From: Candidatus Methylomirabilota bacterium | Lineage (GTDB): Bacteria > Methylomirabilota > Methylomirabilia > Methylomirabilales > Methylomirabilaceae | Direction: 5' to 3' | Assembly (NCBI GenBank): GCA_003104975.1 | Contig: PQAM01000019.1 | Coordinates: 1 to 32,000 of the forward strand | DNA: 32,000 bases | Part shown: positions 481 through 31,943 of the stretch, piece by piece | Layout: every line of letters starts with the position of its first letter | Position numbering within the stretch: the first letter of the stretch is position 1 | Position numbers and translations under genes: made by a program | The notes under the pieces: model-generated | Databases searched by the model: none | Told to the model about the DNA's origin: nothing | What the model saw: the letters and a program-made list of their open reading frames with translations, nothing else

Positions 481-1302
481 ATGGCACAATACAGGACGGA
501 AGCCGTACCAGCTAAGCGTGCTGAGACGGCCGAACAGATGTTTGGCTGGGGCATCTTCTGGAAGTGCATGATCGCGATCAGCCTGTTCTACATCTGCATT
601 CGGATTTACCAGCAGTACTTCTCATGGTCGAAGGGTCTCGACTTCTTCTCTGAAGACTTCCGGATCTACTGGTGGAACATGCTCATCGGTGAGCTGATCA
701 TCGAAGGCGCGGTGCTGACCTTCACCTTGGGCTACATCTGGAAGACCCGCGACCGGAACTTGGACAAGATTACACCGGAAGAGGAGTTGAGGCGGTTCTG
801 GGGTCTCGGACAGTGGATTGTCACGTTCGCGTGGGCCGTCTATTGGGGCGCCAGCTTCTTCACCGAGCAGGACGGGACCTGGCACCAGACCGTGATCCGC
901 GATACCGACTTCACGCCGAGTCACATCATCGAGTTCTACCTGAGCTACCCCATTTATATCATCATCGGGATCAATGCGTACATGTGGGCCAGGACCCGAA
1001 TTCCGCTGTTTGCGGCCGGGCACTCCCTGCCGTTCATGCTGACGGTCGGCGGCCCTGCGATGATCTTCGTCAATGTGGCGTTGAACGAGTGGGGCCACAC
1101 CTTCTGGATCATGGAGGAGCTGTTTGTGGCGCCGCTGCACTGGGGTTTCGTGACGCTCGGTTGGTGTCTGTTCGGGGTGTATGGAGTCGCAGCGGCCATG
1201 TGCCCGCGAATCCATGAGCTGATCAAGATCACCAGCGACGGCAAGGCGGCCCAGTGGGCTCCCAATGTCGGCAAGTTGCCGGTCCAGGTTGATAAGTGGT
1301 AA
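481..1302 (+). CDS. pmoC: particulate methane monooxygenase subunit C (PmoC/AmoC family)
   Basis: 273-aa polytopic membrane ORF with AAGGAGG RBS at 465-471. Recognisable PmoC/AmoC sequence including the metal-site stretch EQDGTWHQTVIRDTDFTPSHIIEFY (D-x3-H ... H). First gene of the canonical C-A-B order. Confidence 0.95.
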   Translation: MAQYRTEAVPAKRAETAEQMFGWGIFWKCMIAISLFYICIRIYQQYFSWSKGLDFFSEDFRIYWWNMLIGELIIEGAVLTFTLGYIWKTRDRNLDKITPEEELRRFWGLGQWIVTFAWAVYWGASFFTEQDGTWHQTVIRDTDFTPSHIIEFYLSYPIYIIIGINAYMWARTRIPLFAAGHSLPFMLTVGGPAMIFVNVALNEWGHTFWIMEELFVAPLHWGFVTLGWCLFGVYGVAAAMCPRIHELIKITSDGKAAQWAPNVGKLPVQVDKW

Positions 1303-1332
1303 ACACACTTGAAATCCTCGTAGCCAAATAGT

Positions 1333-1359
1333 GGAGGGGGTGGGGATCCGCCCCCCTCC
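1333..1359 (+). other. GC-rich stem-loop in the pmoC-pmoA spacer
   Basis: GGAGGGGG (1333-1340) pairs with CCCCCTCC (1352-1359). It sits between the pmoC stop and the pmoA RBS. No U-tract, so it is more likely an mRNA stability or processing element than a terminator. Confidence 0.35.
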
Positions 1360-1380
1360 CTTCTCGGAGGGGAAGAGCCT

Positions 1381-2112
1381 ATGGCGCTCTTATCAGTACA
1401 GCAAGCTGCAAGCCTGGAGCGAAAGTTTGATATCATCATCCTCGTAGCCGCCTTTACCGGTACGGTGGCCGGCTATCATATTCACCAGATGCTGACCGTC
1501 GGCGACTGGGACTTCTGGTTGGACTGGAAGGATCGACGCTGGTGGGTCACGTTGACACCGATCCTGTTGATCACCTTCCCCGCGGCGTCGCAATATTTCA
1601 TGTGGGAGAAGATGCGTCTGCCGATCGGTGCGACCTTCTGCATTATGACGCTTCACTTCGGTCAATGGATGAATCGGGTCTTCAACTTCTACTACTGGGC
1701 CTGGTTCCCGGTCAACTTCACCACCCCGGGCCTGATGATCCCCAGCGCGATCTTCCTGGACGTCATGCTGATGATGACCGGGAGCTACATGTTTACCGCG
1801 CTGTTCGGCGGGATGGGGTGGTCGCTGCTGTTCTACCCTGCGAACTGGACCTGGCTGGCGCCGTTCCACCTGGCGGTGAAGCATCCCAGCGGGCCGCTTA
1901 TGTCGATCGCCGATCTGATGGGGATGGAGTATGTGCGCTCCGCGACGCCTGAGTACATTCGGATCGTCGAGCGCGGGACGCTGCGCACCTTCGGACGTGA
2001 CGTCACACCGGTCTCGTCGTTCTTTGCCGGGTTCATCAGCGGGTTAGTTTACGTCTGGTGGATGTTTATGGGGAAGTGGATAAGCAAGCCGACATGGCTC
2101 GCGCGGACCTAG
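1381..2112 (+). CDS. pmoA: particulate methane monooxygenase subunit A (PmoA/AmoA family)
   Basis: 243-aa membrane ORF with strong family resemblance (WDFWLDWKDRRWW, YPANWTWLAPFH, MSIADLMGMEYVRSATPEYIRIVERGTLRTFGRDV). GGAGGGG RBS upstream. Confidence 0.95.
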   Translation: MALLSVQQAASLERKFDIIILVAAFTGTVAGYHIHQMLTVGDWDFWLDWKDRRWWVTLTPILLITFPAASQYFMWEKMRLPIGATFCIMTLHFGQWMNRVFNFYYWAWFPVNFTTPGLMIPSAIFLDVMLMMTGSYMFTALFGGMGWSLLFYPANWTWLAPFHLAVKHPSGPLMSIADLMGMEYVRSATPEYIRIVERGTLRTFGRDVTPVSSFFAGFISGLVYVWWMFMGKWISKPTWLART

Positions 2113-2168: not shown

Positions 2169-3440
2169 ATGAGGATAGGACGAGCGGCGTTGTCGGCGAT
2201 CTTACTTGGAGTGATCGCTGTGTCCGCGGGGGGGACGGCGTGGGCCCATGGCGAACGATCACAGGAGCCCTTCCTCCGGATGCGTACGATAACGTTTTAT
2301 GACACCAAGTGGTCGAAGGCCCGGGTACAGCCGGGCGAGACGATGGACCTCACGGGCAAGTTCCATACCTTCAGTGAATGGCCGCGGGCGGTCTATCTCC
2401 CCGAGTCGATCTTTTTGCACTACTCTGTGCCGGGGCCCTCAATGCTGAAGAAAGAGGCATGGATGAACGGCATGCCTGTCATCAACTCCACCAGCACGAA
2501 GCTTGGCGGTGACTACGATTATAAGCTAGCAATTATGGGGCGGGTCACCGGCACCTATCACGTTCACCCGATGGTGAATATCGAGGGTGGCGGCCCCTTG
2601 GTCGGTGGCGGCGAATTTGTCACCGTTGACGGCGACTGGAGTAATTTTACCAACAACGTGACCACCATCGATGGCCAGACGATCGATATGGAAACCCATG
2701 GCCAGGGCCGGATCATCGGCTGGTGGGTGTTGTGGACCATCATCGGGGTCTTCTGGCTGGGTTATTGGGTGGTACGGCCGTTTACGCGGCGCATCTTTAT
2801 GGTTGGGACTGTGCCTGAGGAGGAACTGGTCAGCCCCGGCGACCGCACGGTTGGACTTGTGCTGATGATTGCCACCGTCCTGATCGTGGCCATCGGCTAT
2901 GTGACCACTAACGGCGCCTACCCGATTACGATTCCGTTGCAGACCGGTCGGATGGATGCGCCTGAACTGAGGCCTACGACCGAGTTTACGCCGTATGCCC
3001 ATGCCACTGTGAGGGTCCGACCTGTCACTGCGGTTTATACGGTGCCCGGGCGCTCTCTTGGCATGGTCCTGGAGGTCACGAACGGTTCGAATAGGGCCCA
3101 GCAGTTAGGCGGGTTCATTACGGCTAATCTGCAGTTCCGCGAGCCGGCCCAGTTCCCCGACACGCGGCTCAAGATCAAGGTGGAGCCGGCAGGGCCCATC
3201 GCCCCTGGCCAGACCGCGACGGTTTCGGTTGATGCCACCGATGCGGAGTGGGAATACCAGCGGTTGGCCGAGTTGATCTATGACTCAGACAGCCGGTATG
3301 GTGGACTGCTGGAGTTCTTCGACGCCGACAAGAACCGGCAAATTGTCGAGGTTGGTGGCCCTGTGATCCCGTCCTTTGAGGGTGGCGCCACCGCGCTGAC
3401 TGGCGGTGGTCAGTGGCGACCCACGACCCAGTACAAATAG
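2169..3440 (+). CDS. pmoB: particulate methane monooxygenase subunit B (PmoB/AmoB family)
   Basis: AGGAGG RBS. Signal peptide ...GGTAWA|HGERSQEPFLRMRT gives a mature N-terminal His. H-x-H motif YHVHPMVN. Two central TM helices (IIGWWVLWTIIGVFWLGYWVV; VGLVLMIATVLIVAIGYV). Soluble C-terminal domain. Confidence 0.95.
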   Translation: MRIGRAALSAILLGVIAVSAGGTAWAHGERSQEPFLRMRTITFYDTKWSKARVQPGETMDLTGKFHTFSEWPRAVYLPESIFLHYSVPGPSMLKKEAWMNGMPVINSTSTKLGGDYDYKLAIMGRVTGTYHVHPMVNIEGGGPLVGGGEFVTVDGDWSNFTNNVTTIDGQTIDMETHGQGRIIGWWVLWTIIGVFWLGYWVVRPFTRRIFMVGTVPEEELVSPGDRTVGLVLMIATVLIVAIGYVTTNGAYPITIPLQTGRMDAPELRPTTEFTPYAHATVRVRPVTAVYTVPGRSLGMVLEVTNGSNRAQQLGGFITANLQFREPAQFPDTRLKIKVEPAGPIAPGQTATVSVDATDAEWEYQRLAELIYDSDSRYGGLLEFFDADKNRQIVEVGGPVIPSFEGGATALTGGGQWRPTTQYK

Positions 3441-3541: not shown

Positions 3542-3558
3542 CTGAGGTTATTGGCTGT

Positions 3559-3610
3559 GAGGGCCTCGCCCCGGGAGATTCGAATACGAGATTTCCGGGG
3601 CGAGGCCCTC
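3559..3610 (+). terminator. perfect 16-bp GC-rich hairpin after pmoB and the mini-ORF (partial terminator or processing site)
   Basis: GAGGGCCTCGCCCCGG (3559-3574) pairs with CCGGGGCGAGGCCCTC (3595-3610) around a 20-nt loop. No U-tract follows, so attenuation or RNA stabilisation is as likely as termination. Confidence 0.45.
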
Positions 3611-3692
3611 AGGCCCGCGTTGATCCTCCATACCAGATGCCGAGAGATCGAGTGGTTCGACCCGTAGAGGATCCCAGAAGTAGGCAGGTAGA

Positions 3693-4469
3693 ATGATGAA
3701 GTATGTGGTTGCGATTGCGTCAGTCGTTCTGTTGGCGGCGTCCGGGACGTCGCAGGTGTGGGCCCATGGTGGGGGCGGCATGGGTGGCATTACCGAGAAT
3801 GATATCTGCTCCATGGAGCGGGGACAGTATTTCATCCACTTCAGCGCCTATCAACATGCCGCTGCCGGAAATGTTGCCCAGCTTGCGGTCCTCAAAGATC
3901 TCAAGGAGGCAGATCTCAGGCGATACGTGGATGCGATGAAGGAGGAGTTTCGATCCTATTGCCGGGACATACCAAAAACCGGCAAGGCGACGCTGACCTT
4001 TGATCTGATCAGCGATGCGCTTCGCAAGATTCCCGTAGCTGTCCGCGTCGTTGAGGCCTCGGAGCGTGGCAATGCGGAAACTGTCCTCTATATCCCCCAA
4101 CAGGTGTATCCGTCCGGGGTCGTCAAGGCCGAAACCGACTTTACGCATGCAGGCAAATATAAGGCGGTCGTCGAGGTTGAGGAGCAGCATCCGGGGCAAT
4201 CGCCAATCGGCCATGGCGCCGACGCCGCTGACCATCAGCACGACAGTACAGTCATGGTCGGTGTCAAGCATGCCAGTTCAGCCGAGGAGGAGGTGTACCA
4301 CGCCCACGATTCGACCTTCAGTTTCCCCTTTACGGTCGGGTTGAAGACGCCGCGGTCCGGCGGTCGCGGTTCCTCGATGTTCAGCAATCCAAGCATTCTG
4401 GTTACGGCCATTGCCGGCGTGGCGATCGGGGCCGTGCTGTACGTCAGGCAGAAGAAGAAGGCGGCCTGA
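3693..4469 (+). CDS. hypothetical periplasmic His/Met-rich protein with C-terminal membrane anchor (possible copper-handling protein; PmoD-like architecture only)
   Basis: Signal peptide ...GTSQVWA|HGGGGMGG predicts a mature N-terminal His. His clusters GHGADAADHQHDS and VYHAHDS. C-terminal TM plus basic tail ILVTAIAGVAIGAVLYVRQKKKAA. Same strand as pmoCAB and followed by an intrinsic terminator. Confidence 0.7.
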   Translation: MMKYVVAIASVVLLAASGTSQVWAHGGGGMGGITENDICSMERGQYFIHFSAYQHAAAGNVAQLAVLKDLKEADLRRYVDAMKEEFRSYCRDIPKTGKATLTFDLISDALRKIPVAVRVVEASERGNAETVLYIPQQVYPSGVVKAETDFTHAGKYKAVVEVEEQHPGQSPIGHGADAADHQHDSTVMVGVKHASSAEEEVYHAHDSTFSFPFTVGLKTPRSGGRGSSMFSNPSILVTAIAGVAIGAVLYVRQKKKAA

Positions 4470-4571: not shown

Positions 4572-6515
4572 CTAAGCCGAAGGTGGCGGCGCCGGCGTCG
4601 ACGACGCGCTGGGTGCGACGGCCGCTTCGGTGGCGCTGACCTTGGCGGCTGTTCCAGCGGTGGCCGCCTCTGCAGCGGCTGCTCGTGACGGATCCAATGC
4701 TACCACCTTGCCCTCCATGACGTCGTCCAACTCCTCTGCGAAGAGGGTCTCGCGTTCGATCAGGGCCTTCGCCAGCCGCTGCAATTTCTCCCGATTGGTT
4801 TCGATCGTCTGGCGGGCGACCTGGTAGCACTCATCGATGATACGGCGTACCTCCTGGTCGATCTGGTACGCGATTTCTTCGCTGTAGTTCCGACTGTCGA
4901 TCATATCCCGTCCCAGAAACACCGGACCTCCCTGCCGCCCGAGCGTGACGGGGCCGAGCTTGTCGGACATGCCAAAATTGGTGACCATCCGTCGGACCAT
5001 ATTGGTGGCCTGTTCAAAGTCATTCGATGCGCCGGTGGTGACCTCCGCGAAGACGACGTCCTCAGCGACCCGCCCACCCATCGCCACACTCACCTCTGCC
5101 AACAGCTCTCCGCGAGTGCGGGTGTAGCGATCCTCCGGCGGCGCGCCCATGACATAGCCGAGCGCCATCCCGCGCGATACGATGGTGACCTTATGGGGCG
5201 GATCGGCCTTCGGCAGCAGCTTACGCAGGATGGCGTGGCCCGCCTCATGATAGGCCACCATCTCGCGTTCCTTCGGCGTCAGGGCGCGACTGCGGCGCAG
5301 CGGCCCGGCTATGACGCGTTCGGTGGCCTCGTCAAAATCAACCATCGAGACACGGTCCTTCCCGCGTCGGGCGGCCAGGAGCGCGCCCTCATTGACCACG
5401 GCGGCCAGATCCGCTCCCGAAAAGCCGGGGGTCTGTTTGGCAAGGGTGTCCACGTTGACGTCCGGCGCCAGCGGGATTTCGCGCAGATGGACCTGCAAGA
5501 TCGCCTTGCGACCCTTACTGTCCGGGTTGTCCACAATAATGCGACGGTCGAATCGACCCGGGCGCAGAAGGGCCGGATCCAGAATGTCAGGCCGGTTGGT
5601 GGCGGCAATGATGATGATGCCGATATTCGACTCAAAACCGTCCATGGCGACCAGCAGTTGGTTTAACGTCTGCTCGCGCTCATCGTTTCCGCCGCCAAGG
5701 CCGGCGCCACGATGACGGCCGACCGCGTCGATTTCGTCGATAAAGACCAGGCAGGGGGCGTTCTTCTTGGCCTGTTCAAACAGGTCGCGAACGCGGCTGG
5801 CGCCCACCCCGACGAAGACCTCGACGAACTCAGAGCCGGACAGTGAGAAGAATGGAACCCCCGCCTCTCCGGCTACGGCCTTGGCGAGGAGCGTCTTACC
5901 GCACCCCGGCGGTCCGACCAGCAGCAGCCCTTTGGGGATCTTGGCGTGCAGCGCCTGAAACTTCTGCGGGTGCTTCAAAAACTCGATAACCTCTTGCAGT
6001 TCCTCCTTAGGCTCTTCCTCTCCGGCGACATCCGCGAACGTCACCTTGGGTTTAGACGCGTCGTGCAGCTTCGCCTTCGACTTGCCGAAGGCCATCGGAC
6101 CGCCGCCTCCGCCCATTTGGGACCGACGGCTCATCATCACAAACAGGCCGATGATCAAAAGGAACGGCAGGAAGTTGAACAGCAGCCCCATCCAGATCGA
6201 ACCGCCCGAGGCGGGTTCGATGGCAAAGCGAACCCCCTTTTTCTTCAAAAGCTCCTGGAGGGCTCCCGTCGACTCCTTGCTGTAGACCGTCCTGAGGTGC
6301 TGTCCGGACGAGACGTGACCGTAAATGGTGTGGGTGTTTTCGTTGAAAATCACCGTTCCTGCGAGCTGTCCTGATTCCACCATATCCACGAAGTCGCTGA
6401 AAATGACCTGGGTCGAGGCCCTTTTCGGGCTCCAATAGAACGGCAGGAAAGCTATCGCTAGGACCACGAGGATCGCCGCGACCGCTCCCGCAATCTTGGC
6501 GTAACGCTTATTCAC
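4572..6515 (-). CDS. ftsH: ATP-dependent zinc metalloprotease FtsH
   Basis: Walker A GPPGCGKT, Walker B VFIDEIDA, zinc site HEAGHA, N-terminal TM helices. I place the start at GTG 6515 (AAGGAGG 8 nt upstream; N-terminus fMet-NKRYAK...). The ORF track extends to a TTG at 6563. Confidence 0.9.
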
Positions 6516-6713
6516 CGCAATGACCTCCTTGGTGCATCCCGACCTCCAGAAGCCAGGCGTCAACTATCCGGGACGTTATGAAAGAGGGATAACATCTCCT
6601 GAGCTTACTATGTTTCATCTGCTCCTCACTGTGCCGATCGAACTTGCGGTCGGCGTACTCTGATGCGTTCAATCCCTGCGCCACCTGTTACCGACGTTAG
6701 CATATATATTGCC

Positions 6714-7378: not shown

Positions 7379-8896
7379 TTAGAACCGAACCATCAACTCG
7401 GCGATACCCTGATGGGTGAGTTCGCCCTGCGTGTTGTTGCTGACACCGAAGAAGTTCCGTCCCGGCGTGACATCGGTGAGCAGGTAGTTCGCCCGAACGA
7501 AGACGTTGGGGTTGGCATACCAGGTCAGGCCCAGTGTCCCGGCCCGCACCCGCAGCGTATCCTCGGTCGTACCAGCGGCCGGGGTGAAATTGCCCTTGGT
7601 GTCCTCGACCCGCAGGTGCTCGTAGCGGCCGTTGAGCAGCACGCCCTTCAGCTTGTTGCCGTAGAGCCAAAAGCCGATCGTGCCATAGCCGCCCATCATG
7701 CGAAGGTCCTCGAGGTTCGAGCCGCCCGCACCCACGCCGTCGCGCTCCTGAGAGGCATAGTGGAACTCGCCCTTGAGGATGAACGGATACAGATCGAAGA
7801 CGACGTCGGCGCCGGTGGTGACGCGGTCGCCATTGATCAGGAAGCCGTTCATGCTGGTACCGGCACCGTCACCGCCGAACTTATCCCCTAACGTGCTCAC
7901 CGGGTTAAAGCGGTGGAACTTCGAGCCGCCCCCGACAGGTGCCGTGACGCCGTTGGTATCGGTCGCGCCGGCCCCCCGCCGTATGTTGAAGGTACGGAAG
8001 TCGGCATTCACGCCGACGGTGAGGGCGCCAAAGGGCATCGCAGGCGAAACGGTCAAGCGGCCCGTATACTCCTTGTCGCCGTCGTTGTCGACGCTGCCGG
8101 GGCACTGATCGACCCGACCGCAACCGTTAAATACGCCGACCCCGTAATAGATGGGCAACGTGTCGGCAAGTTTGAGATTACCCGAGAGCAGGACGCCCAT
8201 CTGCAGGTCCGGCGAAAAGGCCCGGTTGACAAAGGACCGCTGTGCAGCGAAGTCCAGGTCCTGGGTCGCCATGCCCTGCTCGAGGCTGTAGTGGTGCCGC
8301 ATCTGTCCGGCGGTGACCTTCAACCATGGGGTATAGCTGTAGCTGACAAAACCTGTTTCGATCCGGGCGCCGATATTGCCGCCGGTAAACTCCGGCTCGA
8401 TATGGAAGCCGAAGTCCCTGAAGATCGTCCCGTTGAAGATGACCCGGACACGATGCAACTTCAACGTGCTGGGGCGGTGTCGACCGATTGCCGCCGTCTT
8501 GTCGGAGGCACCGTCGACATCCTCTTCATTCCGCGATGCCTCGACCTGCGCCAACGTCTGCACGTAGCCGCCGATATTCAGTCGGTGCTGACCATCGGCT
8601 GACTTCAGGTAGAACCCCTTTCCGGGCCAGGGGTCAAATCCGGTCTGGAGGGATGATGCCGTCGCCTCCGCGGCCTTCTTCTCTACCTCCATCACACGTC
8701 GGGTCACCTCTTCCTGTTGCGTGGTCCGCTCCTGCCGCAATCGCTGCATCTCCTGCTGCAACTGCTGCAACGACCGCTGCTGTGTCTCAAAGGCCTGCTC
8801 AAGCTCTGTGAGCTTGTCGGCCCATGCCCCTACCGGGGCGAGCAGCAGAGCGCTGCCCAAGACCGCACCACGAACCCACCACTTTCTTTGAGCCAT
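7379..8896 (-). CDS. outer-membrane beta-barrel porin with N-terminal coiled coil (phosphate-selective porin O/P-like)
   Basis: Signal peptide ...APVGAWA|DKL. Heptad-like Q/E/R-rich segment LTELEQAFETQQRSLQQLQQEMQRLRQERTTQQEEV. Alternating beta-strand pattern and C-terminal ...ELMVRF (terminal Phe, an OMP signature). Family assignment is by resemblance only. Confidence 0.7.
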   Translation of the reverse strand: MAQRKWWVRGAVLGSALLLAPVGAWADKLTELEQAFETQQRSLQQLQQEMQRLRQERTTQQEEVTRRVMEVEKKAAEATASSLQTGFDPWPGKGFYLKSADGQHRLNIGGYVQTLAQVEASRNEEDVDGASDKTAAIGRHRPSTLKLHRVRVIFNGTIFRDFGFHIEPEFTGGNIGARIETGFVSYSYTPWLKVTAGQMRHHYSLEQGMATQDLDFAAQRSFVNRAFSPDLQMGVLLSGNLKLADTLPIYYGVGVFNGCGRVDQCPGSVDNDGDKEYTGRLTVSPAMPFGALTVGVNADFRTFNIRRGAGATDTNGVTAPVGGGSKFHRFNPVSTLGDKFGGDGAGTSMNGFLINGDRVTTGADVVFDLYPFILKGEFHYASQERDGVGAGGSNLEDLRMMGGYGTIGFWLYGNKLKGVLLNGRYEHLRVEDTKGNFTPAAGTTEDTLRVRAGTLGLTWYANPNVFVRANYLLTDVTPGRNFFGVSNNTQGELTHQGIAELMVRF

Positions 8897-22309: not shown

Positions 22310-22371
22310 CCCCCGTTCCCCTCCTTTCGCTAATCAGACACCAACAGGCTACTTTGATCCCGGAATGAATC

Positions 22372-23106: not shown

Positions 23107-23200
23107 CCCATGTTCCCCCTTTCTCCTGTAATTGTGTCGTAACGTACACATCTCGGCGCGCTTTGTGATCGTTCCAGACGTGTTGTTGCTCAGATCGTGC

Positions 23201-24187
23201 TCAATCGACATCCATGGGCTTTTTCCCAACCAATTTCAAAAACTCGCCGGAATCGAGCGGACGCTCTCGAGGCGTAAAATAATTTTTTGGGAACCAGATC
23301 AATTTGAGCGCTACGCTCTTGAGTCCGCCATCGACGCGAATGCTGGAGACAGTCAATGCAAGACGGTTACCATCCGGAAAGAGGGTATTATCCGTCAGCG
23401 GAAAATCAAATCGGCCGAGGGTAAATGCGGCATTGGAGTTGACCAATCCCGACTTGGTACCGACCGTCAGCAATTGGACCCTGAACTTCTGATTCGCCCA
23501 GTCGGCATCGTCGACCACAATCGTCATCTTCTGGGCGCCGTCCGGTGATCTCAGATCCTCGATCGGCTCCTTTAATGTTCCGACCACCTGGAACGGGCGC
23601 TGCTCGTTGGCCGCGAGCGACGCATAGATCGTCTGCTGACTCAGGGAGAGTGGCGGCTCTGTAATGGTTAACATGTCGATCCTGGCCCCCTCTCCGTTTG
23701 AGCTCTCGCTGCCTGTCTCCTTTTTCAGCGCGGCTGTTTGACGATCAATGATTCGATCGGCCACGGATCGCAACGCGGTGCGCGCGTCGTGGTTCCCATC
23801 TTTGGCCAGTCGCCTGTCGATACGTTCGAACAATGGTTTCAGTTCAAAGTGTTCGTGAAAATTGAGAGCCAGAAGCTCCACCAACAGTTGTTCCCGGTCG
23901 GCGGACAGCCGTTCGCCGCTCTGAGCGCCGATAAACGGGCTGATAAGGCTGTTGAACATCGAGGCCCGCAGCTCACTCTCCGCCTTTTCCCGCTCGCTGA
24001 GCAGCGTGGTGCCGGCAATCTGACGCTGGCTTTGCAGCGTCGTCTGATTCATCTGCTGCTGAAACGAGTTCGCGAGGCGAGCGCCTATCCATGCTGCGAC
24101 GATGACGGCAGCGGGCGTAGCCAGCTTGACGATGATATCGATGACCCGCGGAAAGCGACTGGACCCCTCCTCTTGATCGCGCGACAT
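23201..24187 (-). CDS. hypothetical membrane-anchored protein
   Basis: 328-aa ORF with one N-terminal TM helix (VIDIIVKLATPAAVIVAAWIGARL), then a Q/E-rich helical segment and a beta-rich C-terminal part. I recognise no family. Confidence 0.6.
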   Translation of the reverse strand: MSRDQEEGSSRFPRVIDIIVKLATPAAVIVAAWIGARLANSFQQQMNQTTLQSQRQIAGTTLLSEREKAESELRASMFNSLISPFIGAQSGERLSADREQLLVELLALNFHEHFELKPLFERIDRRLAKDGNHDARTALRSVADRIIDRQTAALKKETGSESSNGEGARIDMLTITEPPLSLSQQTIYASLAANEQRPFQVVGTLKEPIEDLRSPDGAQKMTIVVDDADWANQKFRVQLLTVGTKSGLVNSNAAFTLGRFDFPLTDNTLFPDGNRLALTVSSIRVDGGLKSVALKLIWFPKNYFTPRERPLDSGEFLKLVGKKPMDVD

Positions 24188-24203
24188 GACCTCCCCTCAG
24201 CAT

Positions 24204-24533
24204 TTACTTCAACTGGATATCCTGCCTGATAGGTTCCGGATGACTCTGGATCATGACGCTTCTGCCGTCGGTGAATTCCACCGTGTAGACACCCGGGGGT
24301 AGGAACAGGCTGTACCCCTTTGATCCATCCGTCTTGACGGCATCCTTGACCACTTTGCCTGAGGCGTCTTTTACGCGAAACGTATCCCCGGGCTTGAACC
24401 TTCCCTTTGCATCATTGACGCGTCCTGATACCAAGCCGGCATCGGCAGATACGGAGAGCGAGAGCGACAACGCAGTTGCAAGGCAGACGATGCCGCTGCC
24501 TGTCCGCCGCACAATCCGTTCAGACTTGACCAT
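24204..24533 (-). CDS. small secreted protein with carboxypeptidase-regulatory-like (Ig-like beta-sandwich) domain
   Basis: AGGAGG 7 nt upstream of ATG 24533. Signal peptide ...SLSVSADA. GLVSGRVNDAKGRFKPGDTFRV...TDGSKGYSLFLPPGVYTVEF is typical of CarboxypepD_reg-like domains. Confidence 0.6.
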   Translation of the reverse strand: MVKSERIVRRTGSGIVCLATALSLSLSVSADAGLVSGRVNDAKGRFKPGDTFRVKDASGKVVKDAVKTDGSKGYSLFLPPGVYTVEFTDGRSVMIQSHPEPIRQDIQLK

Positions 24534-24586
24534 GTCGGACCTCCTGAGAGCCTTGTGCATTAAATTGTGTTATCGCGACTCGACGG

Positions 24587-25318
24587 TCAAGAAAATTCCG
24601 ATGCTGAAACGAGGGATTCCGGGTTGCCGAGTTGCTCGTACTGTCGCATCAGGAGTTTCATATCCTCCCAGACCGTCTTCTTTTCGTGCGGGTTACGCAG
24701 CAAATAGGCGGGATGGAAGGTGGGCAGGATCGGGATCCCGTGATAGTCGTGAAACCGTCCGCGCAACTTCGAAATTGGCTCTTTAGTTCGTAAGAGGGTC
24801 TGGGCCGCGAACGTACCGAGCGCGCAGATCAGTTTCGGCCTGATGGCGTGAAGTTGCGCGATCAGGAAGGGTTCGCATGCCGCGATCTCATCAGGCTCAG
24901 GGTTGCGATTGCCGGGGGGTCGACACTTGATGATGTTGCAGATATAGACCTGCTCACGGGTCAGCTTCATGGCCTCGATGATCCGGGTCAGCAACTGGCC
25001 GGCTCTTCCGACAAACGGCTCAGCCTGTTCGTCCTCGTCTGCGCCGGGCGCCTCTCCGACGAAGACAAGCCATGCCCGCGGGTTGCCGACCCCGAATACG
25101 ATCGTCTTCCGACCTGTGTGCAGCTTGCACCGCGCACACTCTCCCAGCGTCTCCCGCACCTGGGTGAGGGATGCCGTGGGAGGCGGTGCTATCCGCTCTG
25201 GCCATGCAACGTGAAGGCGTTCTATGCCCAAGAGCTTCTGCCGGCGCAGGTGGACACGAGCCTGTCCGATCAACTCGCGAAGCTCGTCCATCTCACGACT
25301 TGCCGCCGCTTCGTTCAT
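24587..25318 (-). CDS. udg: uracil-DNA glycosylase, family 4
   Basis: GECARCKL Cys motif and [26 protein letters not shown] (the GEAPG ... F-x-G-x-AG signature of family 4 UDGs). Confidence 0.85.
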
Positions 25319-26552
25319 CTCCGCCGTACCCTCCGCCCTCCACCCTCCGCCCGATACCCTGACTTGTTCGCAAGTCTACCACGCGATCGAGGATTCGTCG
25401 CGCCACCTCGCGTTTGGACATCAGCGGCAACGCCTCGACGCCGCCTGCCGCATCGAGGAGGACGACCTGATTGGTCTCACTGCCGAAACCGGCGCCCTCC
25501 CGGCTGACATCATTCGCTACGATCAGATCAAGATGTTTGGTCGTTAGCTTGTGGCGTGCTTTCGGTACGAGGTCTTCCGTCTCCGCAGCAAAGCCGACGA
25601 TGATCCGTCCGCCCTTCTGCGCGCCGATCTCCTGCAGGATATCCGGATTCGGCGTAAGGTCCAGCATCAGGGGCGCATCCTGTTTCGTAATTTTCGATGC
25701 GGCTGGGCGGGCCGGCCGATAGTCGCTGACCGCAGCCGCCTTGATGACGACCGTCGCTTCCGGCAGTCGGTCCAGCACCGCCGCGCGCATCTGCAGGGCG
25801 GTTTCAACCACAACGTACTCTACGCCAAAAGGGGGCGTCAATGTAGACGGACCGCTGACCAGGATGGTTCGGGCGCCCCGCAAGATCGCCTCTTCGGCCA
25901 GGGCGTATCCCATCTTGCCGGAAGATCGGGTGCTCAGATAGCGAACCGGATCGAGCGGTTCGCGCGTCGGGCCGGCGGTGATCAGTACCACCTCACCGCT
26001 GAGGTCGTGGGACGGGCAGAGCGTCTCAGTGACCACCCGTATGATCTCGACGGGATCGGCCAGGCGACCGGGACCCCACACCCCCGAGGCCAACTCCCCC
26101 GTTGCAGGCCCGACGGTCCGGACCCCCCAGCTTGTGAGCCGCGCCAGGTTATCCTGGACGGCGGGGTGACGATACATCTCGGCGTCCATTGCCGGTGCGA
26201 GGATGACCGGTTTGGTACAGGCCAGGAAGAGGGTACTCAACAGATCGTCGGCGAGCCCCTGGGCACACTTGGCGATGGTGCCGGCTGTTGCCGGGGCGAT
26301 CAGGAGCAGGTCGGCCTCCCGAGCCGCAGTCAGATGCGGCATCTGGGCCTCCCAGGCTGCCTGGTCGGTCAGGACCGCCTGTCGGGAGAGTGTGGCGAAC
26401 GTCAGGGGCGCGACAAATCGCTGCGCCGATTCGGTCATGACGACACGAACGGAGGCCCCAGCCTTCGTGAGCTCTCGCACCAGCTCGACGGCCTTATAGG
26501 CGGCGATGCTCCCTGTGACGCCCAGCAGAATCTTTTTTCCTTGCAGTGTCAT
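25293..26552 (-). CDS. coaBC: bifunctional phosphopantothenoylcysteine decarboxylase / phosphopantothenate-cysteine ligase
   Basis: N-terminal flavoprotein motif KKILLGVTGSIAAYKAVELVREL. ~419 aa two-domain Dfp architecture. 26-nt overlap with udg. Confidence 0.9.
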   Translation of the reverse strand: MTLQGKKILLGVTGSIAAYKAVELVRELTKAGASVRVVMTESAQRFVAPLTFATLSRQAVLTDQAAWEAQMPHLTAAREADLLLIAPATAGTIAKCAQGLADDLLSTLFLACTKPVILAPAMDAEMYRHPAVQDNLARLTSWGVRTVGPATGELASGVWGPGRLADPVEIIRVVTETLCPSHDLSGEVVLITAGPTREPLDPVRYLSTRSSGKMGYALAEEAILRGARTILVSGPSTLTPPFGVEYVVVETALQMRAAVLDRLPEATVVIKAAAVSDYRPARPAASKITKQDAPLMLDLTPNPDILQEIGAQKGGRIIVGFAAETEDLVPKARHKLTTKHLDLIVANDVSREGAGFGSETNQVVLLDAAGGVEALPLMSKREVARRILDRVVDLRTSQGIGRRVEGGGYGGDERSGGKS

Positions 26553-26571
26553 CTGTCCACCACTAAGAACT

Positions 26572-26649
26572 GGGGTCTAGGGTTTAGGGTCTGGGGTCTA
26601 GTCAAACGGACCCTGTTTTTCTACACCCTACACCCCATACCCTACCCCC
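26572..26649. repeat. paired G-quadruplex-prone repeats between slt and coaBC
   Basis: Plus strand GGGGtctaGGGtttaGGGtctGGGG (26572-26596). Minus strand G-tracts from CCCtacaCCCCataCCCtaCCCCC (26626-26649). The core ACACCCCATACCCTACCCCCT recurs at 28886-28906. Confidence 0.5.
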
Positions 26650-28894
26650 TGTCTTTCTCTGTGCTGTACTGCGCGCGATAGCGGTAATAGCTTCCGAGAA
26701 CCCGCTTCACATAGGCCCGCGTCTCCGTAAAAGGAATCTCTTCGACAAACTCATCATCGGTTCGACTACTTGACCGCGCCAGCCAGCGGCGGACCTGATT
26801 TGGCCCGGCATTGTATGCGGCCAATGCCCTGGCCCAATTACCCTTGAATTCGTCGATCATCATCGCCAGGTATCGAGTACCGAGTGTAATATTGTCGGAC
26901 GGCATGTCAAGCTTCACCGGGTCCCCTGCGCTCCCGGCCGTACGGACCAGGTAATCTGCCGTCGCAGGAAGCAATTGCATCAACCCGACAGCCCCTGAAG
27001 ACGACACCACCCGTTCGCCGAACGCGCTTTCTTCTCGAACCAGCGCGATCACCAGGAACGGATCAAGGGCATGACGCGCGCTCTGCCCCTGTATCAGTTC
27101 CCAATAGCCGAGCGGATAGAGAAACTCCCAATACCTCGGCATGGGCTCCATGGGTCGACTGCGTACGTATAGTGGGCGAAGGAACCGTTTGGCGATCCAG
27201 ACGCTTTTATCGAACTGCCCCAGGTCGAGGAGCGCGCTGCAGGCCTCATAGAGGACGCCGCGGTCGTCCGTATACCGCGCAGCGAGGGCCCGAAACTCGT
27301 CCGAGGCCTCTGCCCGTAACTTCAGCTCCTTGAGCAGTCTGGCCTTCGCCGTCTCAGAAGAGCAGGGTTGCGGAGATAGGGTACAAGGTACAGGCATTTC
27401 AGTCCCCCGCCTCCCGCCTCCCGCCTCCCGCGTATTCACGGCGGGCAGCACAACCTTTGCGCCCAGCGCCTTGAGGCGAAGGCGCGTCTGTTCGGCGTAA
27501 TAGTCGTCGTCGACGTGAGCGCGGAGCAGCCGGCGGTAGGTCTCTACCGCCTTTCCCCTCCTCTTCAGTCCTTCAAGGGCCCGTCCCTGCCAATAGAGGG
27601 CCTGAACCTGGAATCGCGGGTCGGCGGTACCCCGAGCGTGCAATTGTCGCAGATCGGCCAGCGCCTTCGTGAACGCCGACCGCCGGTATTGGATCCAGGC
27701 TCGGGTCCAGAGGGCGGCATCGACGAACCGACTCGATGGGTGGTCTCTGAGCAGCCGATTGAGCGCTCGAATTGCCGGCTTCGGTTGACCGTTATCGCTA
27801 TGCTCCAGCGCCATCAGATAGAGCGACTCTGCAGCGAAGGGACTGTGTGGATAGGCGTCAACCAGACGGGCCCACGTGGCGGCGGCCTTTTCGCGATCGT
27901 CGACCTTCGCATAGCTTCGCCCGATCCAGTACAACGCCTCCGCCGAGTGAAGCGAGCGATCCTGACTCAACGGCGACAGGAGACCGACGGCCCGGCTGTA
28001 ATCCCGACGGTGGAAATAGCCGATACCGCTCCACAGCCGTGCGCGGGAGGCGAAGCCGGAGCCGTCGGTCAGGAAGGGCGCAAACGCGGTAATGGCCTGG
28101 GCGTACTGCCCGCTGCGATGGAGGTTGAGCGCCCGCTCGAACTGCTCGTCGGCGGTGAAGGGCGGAACCTCCGCCATCGAGGTGAGCAGTTCATCGGCTC
28201 GCGCGGCCTCCCGGGTTCCAGGCCACTTCAGCCACAGCTCGCGCAGGAACGCCTCGGCCTGCCGCGGGCGATCCGTCTTGACGGCAATTTCGGCCAGCGC
28301 AAGCTGTGCCTCTCGCCGCCGTATCTCACCGGAGGTGTGAGCCAGGTAATCCCGATGCGCCTCCTCGGCCTCCGCGAGCTGACCGGCGTCAAGATAGAGC
28401 GCAGCGCGCTCTTGACGGGCTCGTTCGGCGAGGAGGCTTTCCGGGTAGTCACGAAGGAGACGCGACAACGACGCCGCGGCCTGCGCGGTCAGGCGAAGGG
28501 TCCGATAGGCGGACGCGCCGTAGTGCAGGGCGTAATCGCCCAGCAACGGAAGCCGTGTCGCGGCCGTCTCCAGTGCGTCGGCCGCCTCCTGCCACCGTTT
28601 CTGCCTGTACAGCGCCATCCCCAGGAGAAAATGGGCCTCAGGCGCCCTGGAAAACCCCTCTCGATGGCGCAGATCGTCCAGGAGGGGTATGGCGCTCTGG
28701 TCATTATTGGTCTCGATAAGGTCGAGCGCCTCCCGCCATAACGGTGCGGCCGTTGCCTCCGGTGAGGCGGCGGCCTGCAGCGGTGCAAGCAGCAGTAGCA
28801 CCGGTAGAAAGGTAAGGAGCATGATAGTCAGGCAGAGCGAAGAGCATACCGCGTAAAATCTAGGGCGCCGACCGTCCCACACCCCACACCCCAT
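26642..28894 (-). CDS. slt: soluble lytic murein transglycosylase (Slt70-like)
   Basis: C-terminal SLT domain ALVREESAFGERVVSSSGAVGLMQLLPATA. Long TPR/superhelical N-terminal region. Alternative start at ATG 28822 (MLLTFLPVLLLLAPLQAAA signal peptide); codons upstream of it are encoded by the G-rich repeat. Confidence 0.85.
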   Translation of the reverse strand: MGCGVWDGRRPRFYAVCSSLCLTIMLLTFLPVLLLLAPLQAAASPEATAAPLWREALDLIETNNDQSAIPLLDDLRHREGFSRAPEAHFLLGMALYRQKRWQEAADALETAATRLPLLGDYALHYGASAYRTLRLTAQAAASLSRLLRDYPESLLAERARQERAALYLDAGQLAEAEEAHRDYLAHTSGEIRRREAQLALAEIAVKTDRPRQAEAFLRELWLKWPGTREAARADELLTSMAEVPPFTADEQFERALNLHRSGQYAQAITAFAPFLTDGSGFASRARLWSGIGYFHRRDYSRAVGLLSPLSQDRSLHSAEALYWIGRSYAKVDDREKAAATWARLVDAYPHSPFAAESLYLMALEHSDNGQPKPAIRALNRLLRDHPSSRFVDAALWTRAWIQYRRSAFTKALADLRQLHARGTADPRFQVQALYWQGRALEGLKRRGKAVETYRRLLRAHVDDDYYAEQTRLRLKALGAKVVLPAVNTREAGGGRRGTEMPVPCTLSPQPCSSETAKARLLKELKLRAEASDEFRALAARYTDDRGVLYEACSALLDLGQFDKSVWIAKRFLRPLYVRSRPMEPMPRYWEFLYPLGYWELIQGQSARHALDPFLVIALVREESAFGERVVSSSGAVGLMQLLPATADYLVRTAGSAGDPVKLDMPSDNITLGTRYLAMMIDEFKGNWARALAAYNAGPNQVRRWLARSSSRTDDEFVEEIPFTETRAYVKRVLGSYYRYRAQYSTEKDRG

Positions 28895-28910
28895 ACCCTA
28901 TCCCCTACCC
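28876..28910 (-). repeat. G-quadruplex-prone repeat at the mtnA stop / slt 5' end
   Basis: Six C-tracts on the plus strand (CCC 28876-78, CCCC 28882-85, CCCC 28889-92, CCC 28896-98, CCCC 28902-05, CCC 28908-10) with 2-3-nt loops, giving G-tracts on the transcribed minus strand. Confidence 0.5.
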
Positions 28911-29956
28911 GACTGGTTGGCCTCGGCCAGGGCGGCCAGACCCGAGTCGTAGGGGGGCCGAACGACCCCACGATTGGTAATCAGGGCGGTAATGTAGCGA
29001 TGCGGCGTCATATCAAAGACGGGATTCCTCGCCATGACGCCTACCGGCGCCGTCCGAATACCTGCCCACCTGGTCACCTCTTCGGGATTGCGCTCCTCAA
29101 TCGGGATCGCCTCGCCGCTGCGCAGCGCCAGATCCATAGTCGACAGGGGGGCCGCGACATAGAACGGGAGATTGTGCGCCTGGGCCAGGACGGCCAGGGC
29201 GTAGGTCCCGATCTTATTGGCGACGTCGCCGTTGCGGGCGATCCGGTCGGCCCCGACGATGACGAGATCGATCTCGCCCCGCTGCATCAAGTGCCCGGCC
29301 ATATTATCGGTAATCAGCGTAACGGGGATGCCGTCCTGTTGCAACTCCCAGGCGGTCAGCCTGGCGCCCTGTAGAAACGGCCGTGTCTCACCGGCCCACA
29401 CCGACAGTTTGGTTCCGGCTGCGTGCGCCGCGCGAATCACGCCCAGGGCGGTTCCATAGCCGGCGGTGGCCAGCGCCCCGGCGTTACAGTGGGTGAGGAC
29501 CGCGGCCCCATCCGGGATCAGCCCCCGGCCGTACTCGCCGATCGCCCGATTGTCTTGGATGTCCTCCTCCAGGATCTGCTGGGCCTCCCGGATGAGCGTC
29601 CGGACGAGTTCGCCGATCGCAAGGTGTTTATGCCGTTCGGCGCTGTGCAGCATCCGCCCGATGCCCCACGCCAGATTGACGGCCGTCGGACGGGTTGCGT
29701 GCAGCATCTCACCACAGCGCGATAACTCTTTATGGAATTCGTCAAAGGTGCGCGCCTGAATCGACTGTGCCGCCAACGCCAGACCCATTGCGCCCGCTAC
29801 CCCAATCGCCGGGGCCCCTCGGATCTGCATCGACCGGATCGCGTGCGCGACGGCTGCCGCATCGCGACACTCGACATATACCTCTTCGGTCGGTAAGCGG
29901 GTTTGATCGAGCAACCGGACCGTGCCTGCTGCCGTCCATTCAATGGTCTCAAACAT
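28898..29956 (-). CDS. mtnA: S-methyl-5-thioribose-1-phosphate isomerase (eIF-2B alpha/beta/delta-like family)
   Basis: Family-typical [18 protein letters not shown] and [21 protein letters not shown], at ~352 aa. Confidence 0.85.
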
Positions 29957-30106
29957 CGTGTCTCTCCATGATCGGTCCGTCCCGGTATCTGCGCTCCTCC
30001 GCTCGTCCCATGCCGAACGGCGGCGTTTTACGCTGCGTCTACCCTACCATTGCTGTCCGGCCGCTTTCAACCGAAATATGCCGCCCGATCCGGTCGAAGA
30101 AAATTC

Positions 30107-30136
30107 TTGACAGGGGGACGCTGACGGTGAGATAGT
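30107..30136 (+). promoter_or_regulatory. candidate sigma-70 promoter for nirS
   Basis: TTGACA (30107-30112), 18 nt, GATAGT (30131-30136). Same CTTGACAGG context as the boxes at 261 and 9470. Confidence 0.35.
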
Positions 30137-30299
30137 GACGCCCAATGCAGCTTACGAGTGTGTCAATTCTCCCCATACGTCACAAAAACATACAGTTGAA
30201 TATAGGAAACGTTGTTTCATTATTGTGAACACGTAGGAATGTCGAGAGAGCGCGCTCACCCTGAACGTCGAGGAACCCTGTTCAACGAAAGGAGAGTAC

Positions 30300-31943
30300 A
30301 TGGCGACAAAGGCAACGTTGGCATTATTGACCCTTGCGCTTGGGATGCTATGGACCGTTCCGGCGCAAGCCCAGCCGGCCAAACCGGCCGAGCTTCCACC
30401 GCCTCCACCGCTGGCGAGTGGTGAGCTAGAGAGCGCCAAGCAGATCTATTTCGACCGGTGCGCCGGCTGTCACGGAGTCCTGAGAAAAGGCGCAACGGGC
30501 CCGCAGCTTCTGCCGGCGAAAACTCGTGCGTTAACCACCCCGGTGCTGAAGGCGTTTATCGTGAACGGGACAGGCGGCGGCATGCCGGACTGGGGCCGGC
30601 AAGGCATTCTTACGGATGCTGAAGCCGATCTGATGGCCCGCTACATCCAGCACGACCCGCCGGTGCCACCCGAGTTGCCCCTGGCGGAGATGAAAAAGAG
30701 TTGGAACCTGATCGTACCGCCGGACAAGCGACCCACAAAGCCCGAACACAACCGCGACTGGCAGGACTTTTTCGCCGTGACCCTGCGTGACGCCGGTCAG
30801 GTAGCCATCATCGACGGCAAGACCAAGGAGATCGTCAACACCGTCAAGACCGGCTTTGCGGTGCATATCTCGCGCAGCTCATTCTCGGGGCGCTATGTCT
30901 ACACCATCGGCCGCGATGGGCGGGCGACCATGATCGACCTGTGGATGAAGGTTCCGGATAAGGTCGCAGAGGTGAAGCCATGCAGCGATGCGCGCTCTAT
31001 TGACACGAGTAAGTATAAAGGAAAGCTCGGCGACTTCACCGACAAGCTGGCGGTCATCGGCTGCTATTGGCCACCGCAGTTCATCGTGTTGGACGGGGGC
31101 ACGCTGGAGCCGATAAAGGTCGTCAGCACCCGGAGCATGACCTACGATACGATGGAGTACCACCAGGAGCCCCGGGTCGCCTCGATCGTGGCCTCGCACT
31201 TCAAGCCTGAGTGGGTCATCAACATCAAGGAGACCGGGCTGATCTGGCTGGTCGATTACTCGGACCTCAAGAACCTGAAGATGACCCAGATCCAGGGCGA
31301 GAAGTTTCTCCACGACGGCGGCTGGGATGCCAGCAAGCGGTATTTCATGGTGGCGGCCAACATGGCGAACAAGGTGGTCGTGATCGACGTCGAGAAAGGC
31401 AAACTGGAGGCGATCTTCGAATCCGGGATCAAACCTCATCCCGGGCGCGGCGCCAACTGGATCGATCCGAAGTACGGTCCGGTGAACGGTACCCCGCATC
31501 TCGGTGAGGGCAAGGTCACTGTTTACGGCACCGATCCGGCCAAGCACAAGGAGTATGCCTGGAAAAAGGTGCGAGAGATCAAGACGCTGGGAGGCGGGGG
31601 CCTGTTTATCAAGACGCACCCGAAGAGCGAGAATGTCTGGGTAGATCACGCCCTGAACGGCGACCCGGCCATTCAAAAGCAGGTCTGCGTCTTCAAGAAG
31701 GCGAATCCGGAGAAAGAGCCGACGTGCTGGAAGGTGTCGGACAAGGGGCGCGCCGTGCACTTCGAGTACAACAAGGCCGGCACCGAGGTGTGGATCAGTG
31801 TGTGGGGGAAGAAAGACGGCAAGAGCGAGGTTGTCGTCTATGACGATAAGACGCTCAAAGAGGTAGCCAGGATCGACGACCCGCGCATTATCACGCCGAC
31901 CGGTAAGTTTAACGTCTACAACACGATGAAGGACATCTATTAA
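30300..31943 (+). CDS. nirS: cytochrome cd1 nitrite reductase (NO-forming)
   Basis: AAGGAG RBS. Sec signal ...VPAQA|QP. Haem c site C54-A-G-C-H58. d1-domain sequence FAVHISRSSFSGRYVYTIGRDGRATMIDLW and following beta-propeller-type repeats. Confidence 0.93.
   Translation: MATKATLALLTLALGMLWTVPAQAQPAKPAELPPPPPLASGELESAKQIYFDRCAGCHGVLRKGATGPQLLPAKTRALTTPVLKAFIVNGTGGGMPDWGRQGILTDAEADLMARYIQHDPPVPPELPLAEMKKSWNLIVPPDKRPTKPEHNRDWQDFFAVTLRDAGQVAIIDGKTKEIVNTVKTGFAVHISRSSFSGRYVYTIGRDGRATMIDLWMKVPDKVAEVKPCSDARSIDTSKYKGKLGDFTDKLAVIGCYWPPQFIVLDGGTLEPIKVVSTRSMTYDTMEYHQEPRVASIVASHFKPEWVINIKETGLIWLVDYSDLKNLKMTQIQGEKFLHDGGWDASKRYFMVAANMANKVVVIDVEKGKLEAIFESGIKPHPGRGANWIDPKYGPVNGTPHLGEGKVTVYGTDPAKHKEYAWKKVREIKTLGGGGLFIKTHPKSENVWVDHALNGDPAIQKQVCVFKKANPEKEPTCWKVSDKGRAVHFEYNKAGTEVWISVWGKKDGKSEVVVYDDKTLKEVARIDDPRIITPTGKFNVYNTMKDIY

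Follow-up and report, generated by a model that had tools for sequence, protein, structure and literature searches.

Why should the genes for a methane monooxygenase, an enzyme that consumes O2, lie together with genes for the metabolism of nitrite and nitric oxide (NO), and what would connect their products? The question is posed by the first 32,000 nucleotides of contig PQAM01000019.1 (assembly GCA_003104975.1, Candidatus Methylomirabilota bacterium), hereafter the window, which carry pmoCAB, encoding particulate methane monooxygenase (pMMO), two tandem genes (nod) for proteins with the fold of NO reductases (NORs), and nirS, encoding cytochrome cd1 nitrite reductase. We consider it highly probable (about 0.85) that the window represents the central catabolic locus in a nitrite-dependent methane-oxidising Candidatus Methylomirabilis (NC10). 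In such a pathway periplasmic NirS would reduce nitrite to NO; two Nod paralogs in the membrane, derived from quinol-dependent NOR (qNOR) but with the quinol site lost and the non-haem metal site altered, would disproportionate 2 NO to N2 and O2; and PmoCAB, probably assisted by a PmoD-like protein and a small peptide in the membrane, would hydroxylate methane with the O2 so produced.

Components of the pathway and published support

Genes for pMMO, NirS and Nod are all present in this one genome, at exactly the positions given in an initial annotation of the window (the choice of ATG 10961 as start of the first nod gene included), as judged by Pfam matches, ribosome-binding sites (RBSs) and similarity between the paralogs. 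The pMMO subunit genes stand in the order C-A-B in the Pfam scan. PmoC matches the Methylocystis PmoC (4PHZ) at E = 6e-90 and keeps its metal ligands, Asp-x3-His...His for CuC and Asn-x3-His...His for CuD (EQDGTWH...PSH and NEWGH...PLH). PmoB matches that of M. capsulatus (3RGB) at E = 3e-104 and keeps the CuB ligands, namely the N-terminal His past the signal peptide (cleavage between TAWA and HGERSQ) and HVH (in YHVHPM). PmoA is identical to a Methylomirabilota (NC10) PmoA in NCBI (PWB42337). Membership of PmoB in the Methylomirabilis clade, taken with published physiology, points to methane as the probable substrate.

NirS matches cytochrome cd1 nitrite reductase of Pseudomonas aeruginosa end to end (1NIR-type chains, E = 1.4e-185). 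The haem-c motif CAGCH is kept, Pfam recognises Cytochrome_CBB3/Cytochrom_C and Cytochrom_D1 domains, and the protein shares its 90%-identity cluster with CBE69462 of Candidatus Methylomirabilis oxyfera. NirS and the two Nod proteins are identical to NCBI records PWB42358, PWB42344 (Nod 1) and PWB42345 (Nod 2), all assigned to NC10 / Candidatus Methylomirabilota, and the first nod product shares a 90%-identity cluster with M. oxyfera CBE69502.

The chain from NirS through Nod to pMMO, which the initial annotation had put forward, is the same as the intra-aerobic model put forward for M. oxyfera by Ettwig et al. 2010 (summary in PMC3413370; also PMC6094997), and the genes stand in the same order in both organisms. 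The checks that the annotation had named (nosZ, N2O, the fate of 18O from nitrite, and expression) are on record for the genus. M. oxyfera has the full aerobic methane pathway, a highly expressed pMMO and no identifiable N2O reductase, and releases negligible N2O (PMC3413370); absence of nosZ is reported for both M. oxyfera and M. lanthanidiphila (PMC3413370, PMC6094997). Formation of 18O-labelled O2 from 18O-nitrite and sensitivity to acetylene have been described, and pMMO and both Nod paralogs are among the most abundant M. oxyfera transcripts and proteins (PMC3413370, PMC6094997). By the published stoichiometry not all of the O2 would be used by pMMO, one of every four molecules being respired (PMC3413370). 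The dismutase chemistry itself we infer from this whole-cell physiology of M. oxyfera and not from an isolated enzyme.

Both the pathway and the gene arrangement are already known from the published M. oxyfera genome and the model of 2010-2012, and the proteins of the window are in NCBI. The pathway constitutes a fourth biological route to O2, permits anaerobic removal of methane and bypasses N2O, as has been known since 2010; the value of the present finding is confirmation that a reading of the sequence alone rebuilt the published model correctly. Its by-products (a micro-peptide, a PmoD-like partner, gene conversion between the nod genes and a sigma54-like element) are of modest practical interest to those who work on pMMO and Nod.

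The two nod paralogs

The Nod proteins (810 and 808 amino acids, 84% identical) are each one polypeptide with an N-terminal cytochrome-c-like domain and a COX1 domain. Among solved structures, qNOR from Geobacillus stearothermophilus (3AYF, E = 1e-130) comes nearest. Shared with it are the fused layout, in which a cytochrome-c-like domain without haem c is followed by a COX1-type catalytic domain, and the FeB His-x3-Glu; the differences lie at the active site and the quinol site. In both paralogs the FeB ligand His560 is replaced by Asn (GISHNFYW aligned to GIGHHYYY of 3AYF) and the catalytic Glu581 by Gln (STMQVLP aligned to SALEVIP), and three quinol-site residues are exchanged (His328 to Glu, Glu332 to Gly, Asp746 to Gly). 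In the first paralog the three motifs read GISHNFYW, STMQVLP and AAEDFVGGGP. The numbering of the quinol-site residues follows our own reading of the 3AYF alignment and the residue assignment attributed to Matsumoto et al. 2012.

The replacements at the active site and the quinol site suggest that Nod is not a quinol-driven reductase. By the same features (His to Asn, Glu to Gln and loss of the quinol site) Ettwig et al. 2012 defined DAMO_2434 and DAMO_2437 as putative NO dismutases (PMC3413370), and both proteins of the window carry this signature. Its Asn/Gln part extends across the genes surveyed: a scan of one genome per species returned 79 loci with Nod-like genes, and Asn and Gln were present in 79 of the 79 genes scored. 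As to the extent of the first nod gene, a start at GTG 10820 was rejected in favour of ATG 10961, which has a GGGAGG RBS and marks the onset of similarity between the paralogs.

Divergence between the paralogs is unevenly distributed. Third-codon-position identity is ~0.47 over the first 160 codons, compared to 0.88 in the catalytic core (codons ~350-690), and the core includes stretches of 100% nucleotide identity between ~12000-13030 and ~15070-16100. In the core, paralogs within one genome have a third-position identity of 0.88 (window) and 0.89 (M. oxyfera), compared to 0.75-0.77 for orthologs between the genomes. This excess of paralog over ortholog identity indicates gene conversion in both lineages, and this ongoing process would keep the catalytic cores nearly identical.

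Past the first nod gene lies an intrinsic terminator (13433-13470, +) with a 17-bp stem followed by a run of T, and past the second a hairpin (16497-16536, +) whose stem is nearly the same (ATACCCCCCGGTAC and GTACCGGGGGGTAT; repeat family D15). The terminator has been duplicated together with the nod gene. Upstream of the first nod gene a stretch of 290 nt is conserved and probably represents a leader or promoter; a coding small open reading frame (smORF) within it was rejected on account of a 2-nt indel relative to M. oxyfera.

Further upstream is a gene for a one-component regulator with PAS and LuxR-type domains (PAS-LuxR), which is kept in M. oxyfera and in four further loci (L002, L047, L099, L101). 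With the exception of the rearranged locus L095, it adjoins nod on the upstream side wherever a Methylomirabilis locus extends this far, and a homolog (59% identical) is found beside nod in a metagenome-assembled genome (MAG) of Bdellovibrionota (L003, 9159-9782). The protein may be a dedicated regulator of nod.

Transcription units and gene order

Proximity of the pmo, nod and nirS genes may mean that they are transcribed together, or that they are neighbors on the chromosome and nothing more. The predicted signals favor the latter: pmoCAB with the smORF that follows it, the PmoD-like gene, each nod gene and nirS form separate transcription units within ~31 kb, not one operon, as the initial annotation had proposed in speaking of loose clustering. 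This follows from the presence of a terminator for each nod gene, from a hairpin of -59 kcal/mol that closes the pmo unit, and from the conserved promoter-like sites that pmoC and nirS each have. The candidate for nirS (30107-30136, +) resembles a sigma70 promoter at 10 of 12 positions (TTGACA-18-GATAGT, with TG before the -10 hexamer), and the block is kept in M. oxyfera. The candidate for pmoC (262-291, +) has the form TTGACA-18-TATGCT, again with 10 of 12 positions, and its -35 block (AAAAAGGACTTGACA) is kept in three lineages; this assignment is tentative because in L096 a 32-nt insertion separates the -35 and -10 hexamers.

The genes between pmo, nod and nirS were said to be mostly housekeeping. 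This holds for the greater part of them, and nearly all are on the opposite strand; it does not hold for four that look linked to the pathway, namely the PmoD-like gene, the gene of the small membrane peptide, the anion-porin-like gene and the PAS-LuxR regulator. In every Methylomirabilis locus examined, the porin gene and that of an 83-aa GYD protein occupy the same place in the interval from pmo to nod. One might speculate that the porin, a member of the anion-selective O/P family, is the route by which nitrite enters.

A genomic island or mobile element was also considered, and rejected: GC-content is even along the window, in which we found no tRNA gene, no match to an Rfam family and no long flanking repeats.

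It had further been suggested that synteny be followed across NC10 genomes, and for the most part the order holds. The pmo-to-nod segment recurs in M. oxyfera, in a contig from the same species (L088), in two NC10 MAGs (L099 and L100, 86% PmoB identity) and in a JGI contig (L101, 89%). A further contig (L002) keeps FtsH-porin-PAS/LuxR-nod-nod-NadE and ends before pmo. The one departure, in L095, is described below.

Two further observations arose from the survey of nod loci. The nod genes on L002 (DATMXF010000229.1, labelled 'Patescibacteria group bacterium') and L020 (JAHFCR010000151.1, labelled 'Peptococcaceae bacterium') are those of Methylomirabilis (86-90% identity); both contigs have probably been mis-binned in the public MAGs. 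At L033 and L042, a NorB-like gene with the canonical HisHis/Glu site lies ~6 kb from nod.

Alternative explanations

The points that weigh against our reading concern either the chemistry or the locus. As to the chemistry, characterisation of the NOD enzyme is still to be achieved (PMC6094997), no report of a purified Nod making O2 and N2 was found in the newer literature, and the PDB holds no structure of Nod, its closest entry being an ordinary qNOR. NO-dependent O2 release is moreover reported in P. aeruginosa, which is not described as using Nod (PMC8608891), and Nod may therefore not be the sole route to O2. As to the locus, no shared regulatory site was recovered: the FNR/Dnr/NnrR box (TTGAT-N4-ATCAA) has 12 matches in the window compared to 8.2 expected, none of them in a promoter region. 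Gene order is not fixed, since in L095 (ENA contig k141_6579874, 5522-11647; 86% PmoB identity) the porin is followed directly by reversed MtnA-SLT-CoaBC in place of PAS/LuxR-nod, a layout that fits either an inverted nod-to-mtnA block or a relocated nod. Finally, some 75 nod loci lie outside NC10, in Acidobacteria, Myxococcota, Planctomycetota, Alpha- and Gammaproteobacteria, Binatia and others (L003-L079, by MAG label), and in none of them does a homolog of pmo or nirS lie within 10 kb; physical linkage is consequently no general property of nod.

Could the NOR-fold proteins be something other than dismutases? They might be atypical NO reductases, NO-detoxifying enzymes or NO-binding proteins with an unknown electron donor, pMMO drawing its O2 or oxidant from another reaction. 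The gaps in enzyme-level proof and the O2 release in P. aeruginosa lend this some weight, as do the qNOR fold, which Nod retains overall along with both haem ligands and most of the FeB ligands, and the wide occurrence of the family in organisms that have no monooxygenase gene beside nod. We nevertheless judge it unlikely. With all three quinol-binding residues lost there is no obvious point of electron entry, and a signature without exception across the scored family indicates a distinct and conserved chemistry. M. oxyfera releases very little N2O and has no nosZ, yet it produces N2 and, when given labelled nitrite, forms labelled O2, with both paralogs among its most abundant proteins; detoxification could be left to the canonical qNOR, the sNOR and the gNOR encoded elsewhere in its genome (PMC6094997). 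A more radical possibility, raised as a formal alternative in PMC3413370, is that pMMO takes NO directly as oxidant and releases N2, so that neither free O2 nor a dismutase is needed. This would equally account for the lack of N2O, but we regard it as very improbable, given that the stoichiometry does not fit, that labelled O2 was detected (PMC3413370), and that all known pMMO copper ligands are kept in the window, with no adaptation to a different oxidant. Dismutation of NO by Nod remains the explanation that we prefer.

A separate issue is whether the proximity of pmo, nod and nirS is itself a product of selection, that is, whether the locus is a co-regulated or co-inherited 'intra-aerobic island' or an order neutrally inherited. 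Under random placement the chance that three signature loci fall within ~31-35 kb of a 2.75-Mb genome is ~5e-4 (3(w/L)^2 with w of ~35 kb; our own arithmetic, with the genes chosen post hoc), and an accidental placement is unlikely. The order is common to the window species and M. oxyfera although third-codon-position identity of their orthologs is down to ~0.4-0.8; three further lineages keep it from pmo to nod, and another from porin to nod; genes that look linked to the pathway (PmoD-like, porin, PAS-LuxR) lie inside the cluster; and pmoC and nirS share conserved -35-like blocks (CTTGACAGG) with an 18-nt spacer. Yet ~60% of the span consists of housekeeping genes on the opposite strand, the integrase and repeat boundaries that mark islands are lacking, as are tRNA genes and any shift in GC-content, and both the break at the porin boundary in L095 and the unlinked nod loci of other phyla tell against an island. 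All genomes with the order belong, moreover, to one genus, for which shared ancestry suffices as explanation, and an order conserved inside a single genus is no proof of selection. A selected island therefore appears doubtful to us; the proximity belongs to the Methylomirabilis lineage rather than to nod biology at large.

A small open reading frame after pmoB

Beginning 17 nt past the stop codon of pmoB is a smORF of 27 codons, which has its own RBS (GGAAGGAGAG) and encodes a peptide (MEFAAQGMNIALLLMLLFVVLTLVNQA) with a single hydrophobic helix. Of all items in this analysis it is the only one that might be new. NCBI records carry no annotation of it, and automatic gene callers caught it twice only, without a name. 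Versions of 25-27 codons were found in seven Methylomirabilis pmo loci (the window, M. oxyfera and five further lineages, with PmoB identities of 72-100%). A scan of JGI metagenomes with a degenerate pattern for the N-terminus of the peptide returned a single contig; the N-terminus proved to be variable, and further copies were located by way of PmoB homologs.

Every copy has an RBS, the C-terminal motif TL[VT][NR]QA and a hairpin downstream, and length varies by whole codons. With 5 variable sites, the second codon position is the least variable, compared to 12 and 15 at the other positions. Synonymous codon differences exceed non-synonymous ones in several close pairs, but not in more distant pairs. 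In the nearest outgroup operon (L102, 51% PmoB identity) pmoB is not followed by the smORF. In the window the unit of pmoCAB and smORF is closed by a long, GC-rich hairpin (3558-3611, +; -59.1 kcal/mol, z = -6.8 by RNA fold), and the related pmo loci each carry a hairpin at the matching place, though with a different sequence.

What might the peptide do? Electron cryo-microscopy (cryo-EM) of native membranes has revealed short, previously unidentified helices beside PmoC and AmoC (PMC11725843). These supernumerary helices are, in Methylocystis sp. Rockwell, a protein of 23 aa and, in N. europaea, an open reading frame of 46 aa (Tucci and Rosenzweig, PMC11725843). They make it plausible that the smORF peptide is an operon-encoded counterpart. 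It resembles them in size and character, being a short single helix, unannotated or of unknown function; it differs in that its gene directly follows pmoB and in that no sequence similarity is detectable, a search against PDB chains, the deposited supernumerary helices included, giving nothing at E <= 10. Its tie to pMMO we infer from the position of the gene alone. We therefore suggest tentatively, at somewhat less than even odds, that the Methylomirabilis pmo operon is pmoCAB-X and that the peptide is a fourth, supernumerary transmembrane subunit of pMMO, analogous to the cryo-EM helices but unrelated to them in sequence. If true, then it would be the first supernumerary helix encoded within the operon, and would provide a genetic handle on the role of such helices, for example in array formation or in stabilising PmoC and its copper sites.

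The region upstream of pmoC and the PmoD-like protein

Some 300 nt upstream of pmoC is a sigma54-type -24/-12-like element, TGGCAT-N5-TTGC (168-183, +), which is kept as TTGGCAYCATCYTTGC across three Methylomirabilis lineages. The pattern is not enriched in the window as a whole (15 matches compared to 12.7 expected). In L096 (681-2546) and L099 (1-114) the gene directly upstream of pmoC encodes a sigma54 activator (Fer2, Sigma54_activat and HTH_8 domains), its Fer2 being an N-terminal 2Fe-2S ferredoxin-type domain; the window begins just past the stop codon of this gene. Expression of pmoCAB may accordingly depend on sigma54 and be redox-sensed.

The protein of 258 amino acids encoded after the smORF has a signal peptide, a periplasmic domain, a His-rich stretch and a C-terminal membrane anchor. 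Its predicted cleavage, between QVWA and HGGGGMGG, would leave an N-terminal His as in PmoB. That it is a paralog of PmoB was nevertheless rejected, since the likeness is limited to the signal peptide with AHG; it is PmoD that was matched instead. The match to the PmoD structure 6CPD is modest (E = 4e-6 over 79 residues, 87-165) and spans the second Cys alone, and no Pfam or NCBIfam family was matched. Proteins of the PmoD family have a signal peptide, a periplasmic domain with two conserved Cys and a transmembrane helix at the C-terminus (PMC6189053). The 258-aa protein has this layout, two Cys (C39 and C90) are common to the proteins of the window and of M. oxyfera, and the gene comes after pmoB in M. 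oxyfera (a homolog of 254 aa) and in the outgroup L102 (7339-8052). The protein is probably a partner of PmoCAB.

Gene content of the window

The positions of the genes are given in Table 1. The Pfam scan took in all 29 gene-sized open reading frames of the window, and among these there is no norC, nosZ, COX2 or other oxidase subunit, in agreement with the initial annotation. M. oxyfera encodes qNOR, sNOR and gNOR together with one terminal oxidase elsewhere in its genome (PMC6094997), and absence from the window is therefore not absence from the organism.

Table 1. Features of the window: positions, strand and evidence.
Feature	Positions	Strand	Evidence
pmoC, pMMO subunit C	481-1302	+	Pfam AmoC 1.6e-95
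pmoA, pMMO subunit A	1381-2112	+	Pfam AMO 1.7e-97
pmoB, pMMO subunit B	2169-3440	+	Pfam Monooxygenase_B 3e-123
27-aa smORF, single hydrophobic helix	3458-3541	+	RBS GGAAGGAGAG, product MEFAAQGMNIALLLMLLFVVLTLVNQA
smORF copies in related pmo loci	L080 2425-2508; L086 2196-2279; L095 from 1667; L096 from 6146; L097 from 2048; L098 from 1720		
PmoD-like 258-aa protein	3693-4469	+	6CPD match E = 4e-6
FtsH	4572-6563	-	Pfam scan
GYD protein, 83 aa	7045-7296	-	Pfam scan
Porin, phosphate-selective porin O/P family, outer membrane	7379-8896	-	Pfam Porin_O_P 1.7e-10
PAS-LuxR (GerE) one-component regulator	9491-10390	+	Pfam PAS_9 + GerE
nod paralog 1 (DAMO_2437 ortholog, NOD2 in PMC6094997), putative NO dismutase	10961-13393	+	NorB_cytochrome_c-like + COX1
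nod paralog 2 (DAMO_2434 ortholog, NOD1), putative NO dismutase	14034-16460	+	NorB_cytochrome_c-like + COX1
NadE, C-N hydrolase, methyltransferase, PriA, four without confident match, UDG, CoaBC, SLT-TPR transglycosylase, MtnA	16559-29956	-	
nirS, cytochrome cd1 nitrite reductase	30300-31943	+	Cytochrom_D1 7.6e-130 + c-type haem domain

Two repeats were noted in the region between nod and nirS. Tandem paralogs at 21635-22309 and 22372-23229 (-) share ~75% DNA identity and have weak FG-GAP matches. A 28-nt direct repeat, 26 of its 28 positions identical, flanks the SLT transglycosylase gene (26623-26650 and 28879-28906). On the minus (coding) strand each copy of it contains a stop codon followed 3 nt on by an ATG (TAGGGTATGGGGTGT), the downstream copy opening merely a mini-open reading frame of five codons; the repeat was found in none of the related loci fetched.

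Comparison with known systems

Canonical nirS-norCB-nosZ denitrification clusters share with this locus a cd1 NirS, and with its M. oxyfera ortholog the genes downstream of nirS for haem-d1 biosynthesis and napAB; unlike them, the locus has no norC, no norB with a HisHis site and no nosZ. In M. oxyfera, nirJ, nirF-like, napAB and nirDL-type genes come directly after nirS, a part of the sequence that the window, which stops 57 nt past nirS, does not reach. The NorZ of the gamma-proteobacterium HdN1 and environmental nod genes have the same N/Q active-site signature as the Nod proteins described here; outside NC10 nod is single-copy, with no copper monooxygenase or nirS in its vicinity (10 kb).

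The closest counterpart is M. oxyfera itself, in which the genes DAMO_2451 to DAMO_2415 (FP565575.1, ~2,073,164-2,107,960) match the window in order and orientation, with ~34.8 kb from pmoC to nirS. Read from two adjoining segments, the order is pmoCAB, PmoD-like, FtsH, porin, PAS/LuxR, nod (DAMO_2437), nod (DAMO_2434) and NadE, continuing with C-N hydrolase, methyltransferase, PriA, UDG, CoaBC, SLT, MtnA and nirS. The published tags are Damo_2451/2450/2448 for pmoC/A/B, Damo_2434 and 2437 for the NODs, and Damo_2408-2415 for the NirS cluster (PMC6094997). M. oxyfera is a close relative, but a different species. It has ~3.6 kb more between the second nod gene and nadE (L080 15720-19374, compared to 16460-16559 in the window), a segment, lacking in the window, with genes for a c-type cytochrome of 126 aa and a Tll0287-like protein and with several small open reading frames, and it has one copy of the 224-aa gene that is tandemly duplicated in the window (21635-22309 and 22372-23229). 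Its tandem nod paralogs are, like those of the window, 84% identical to each other.

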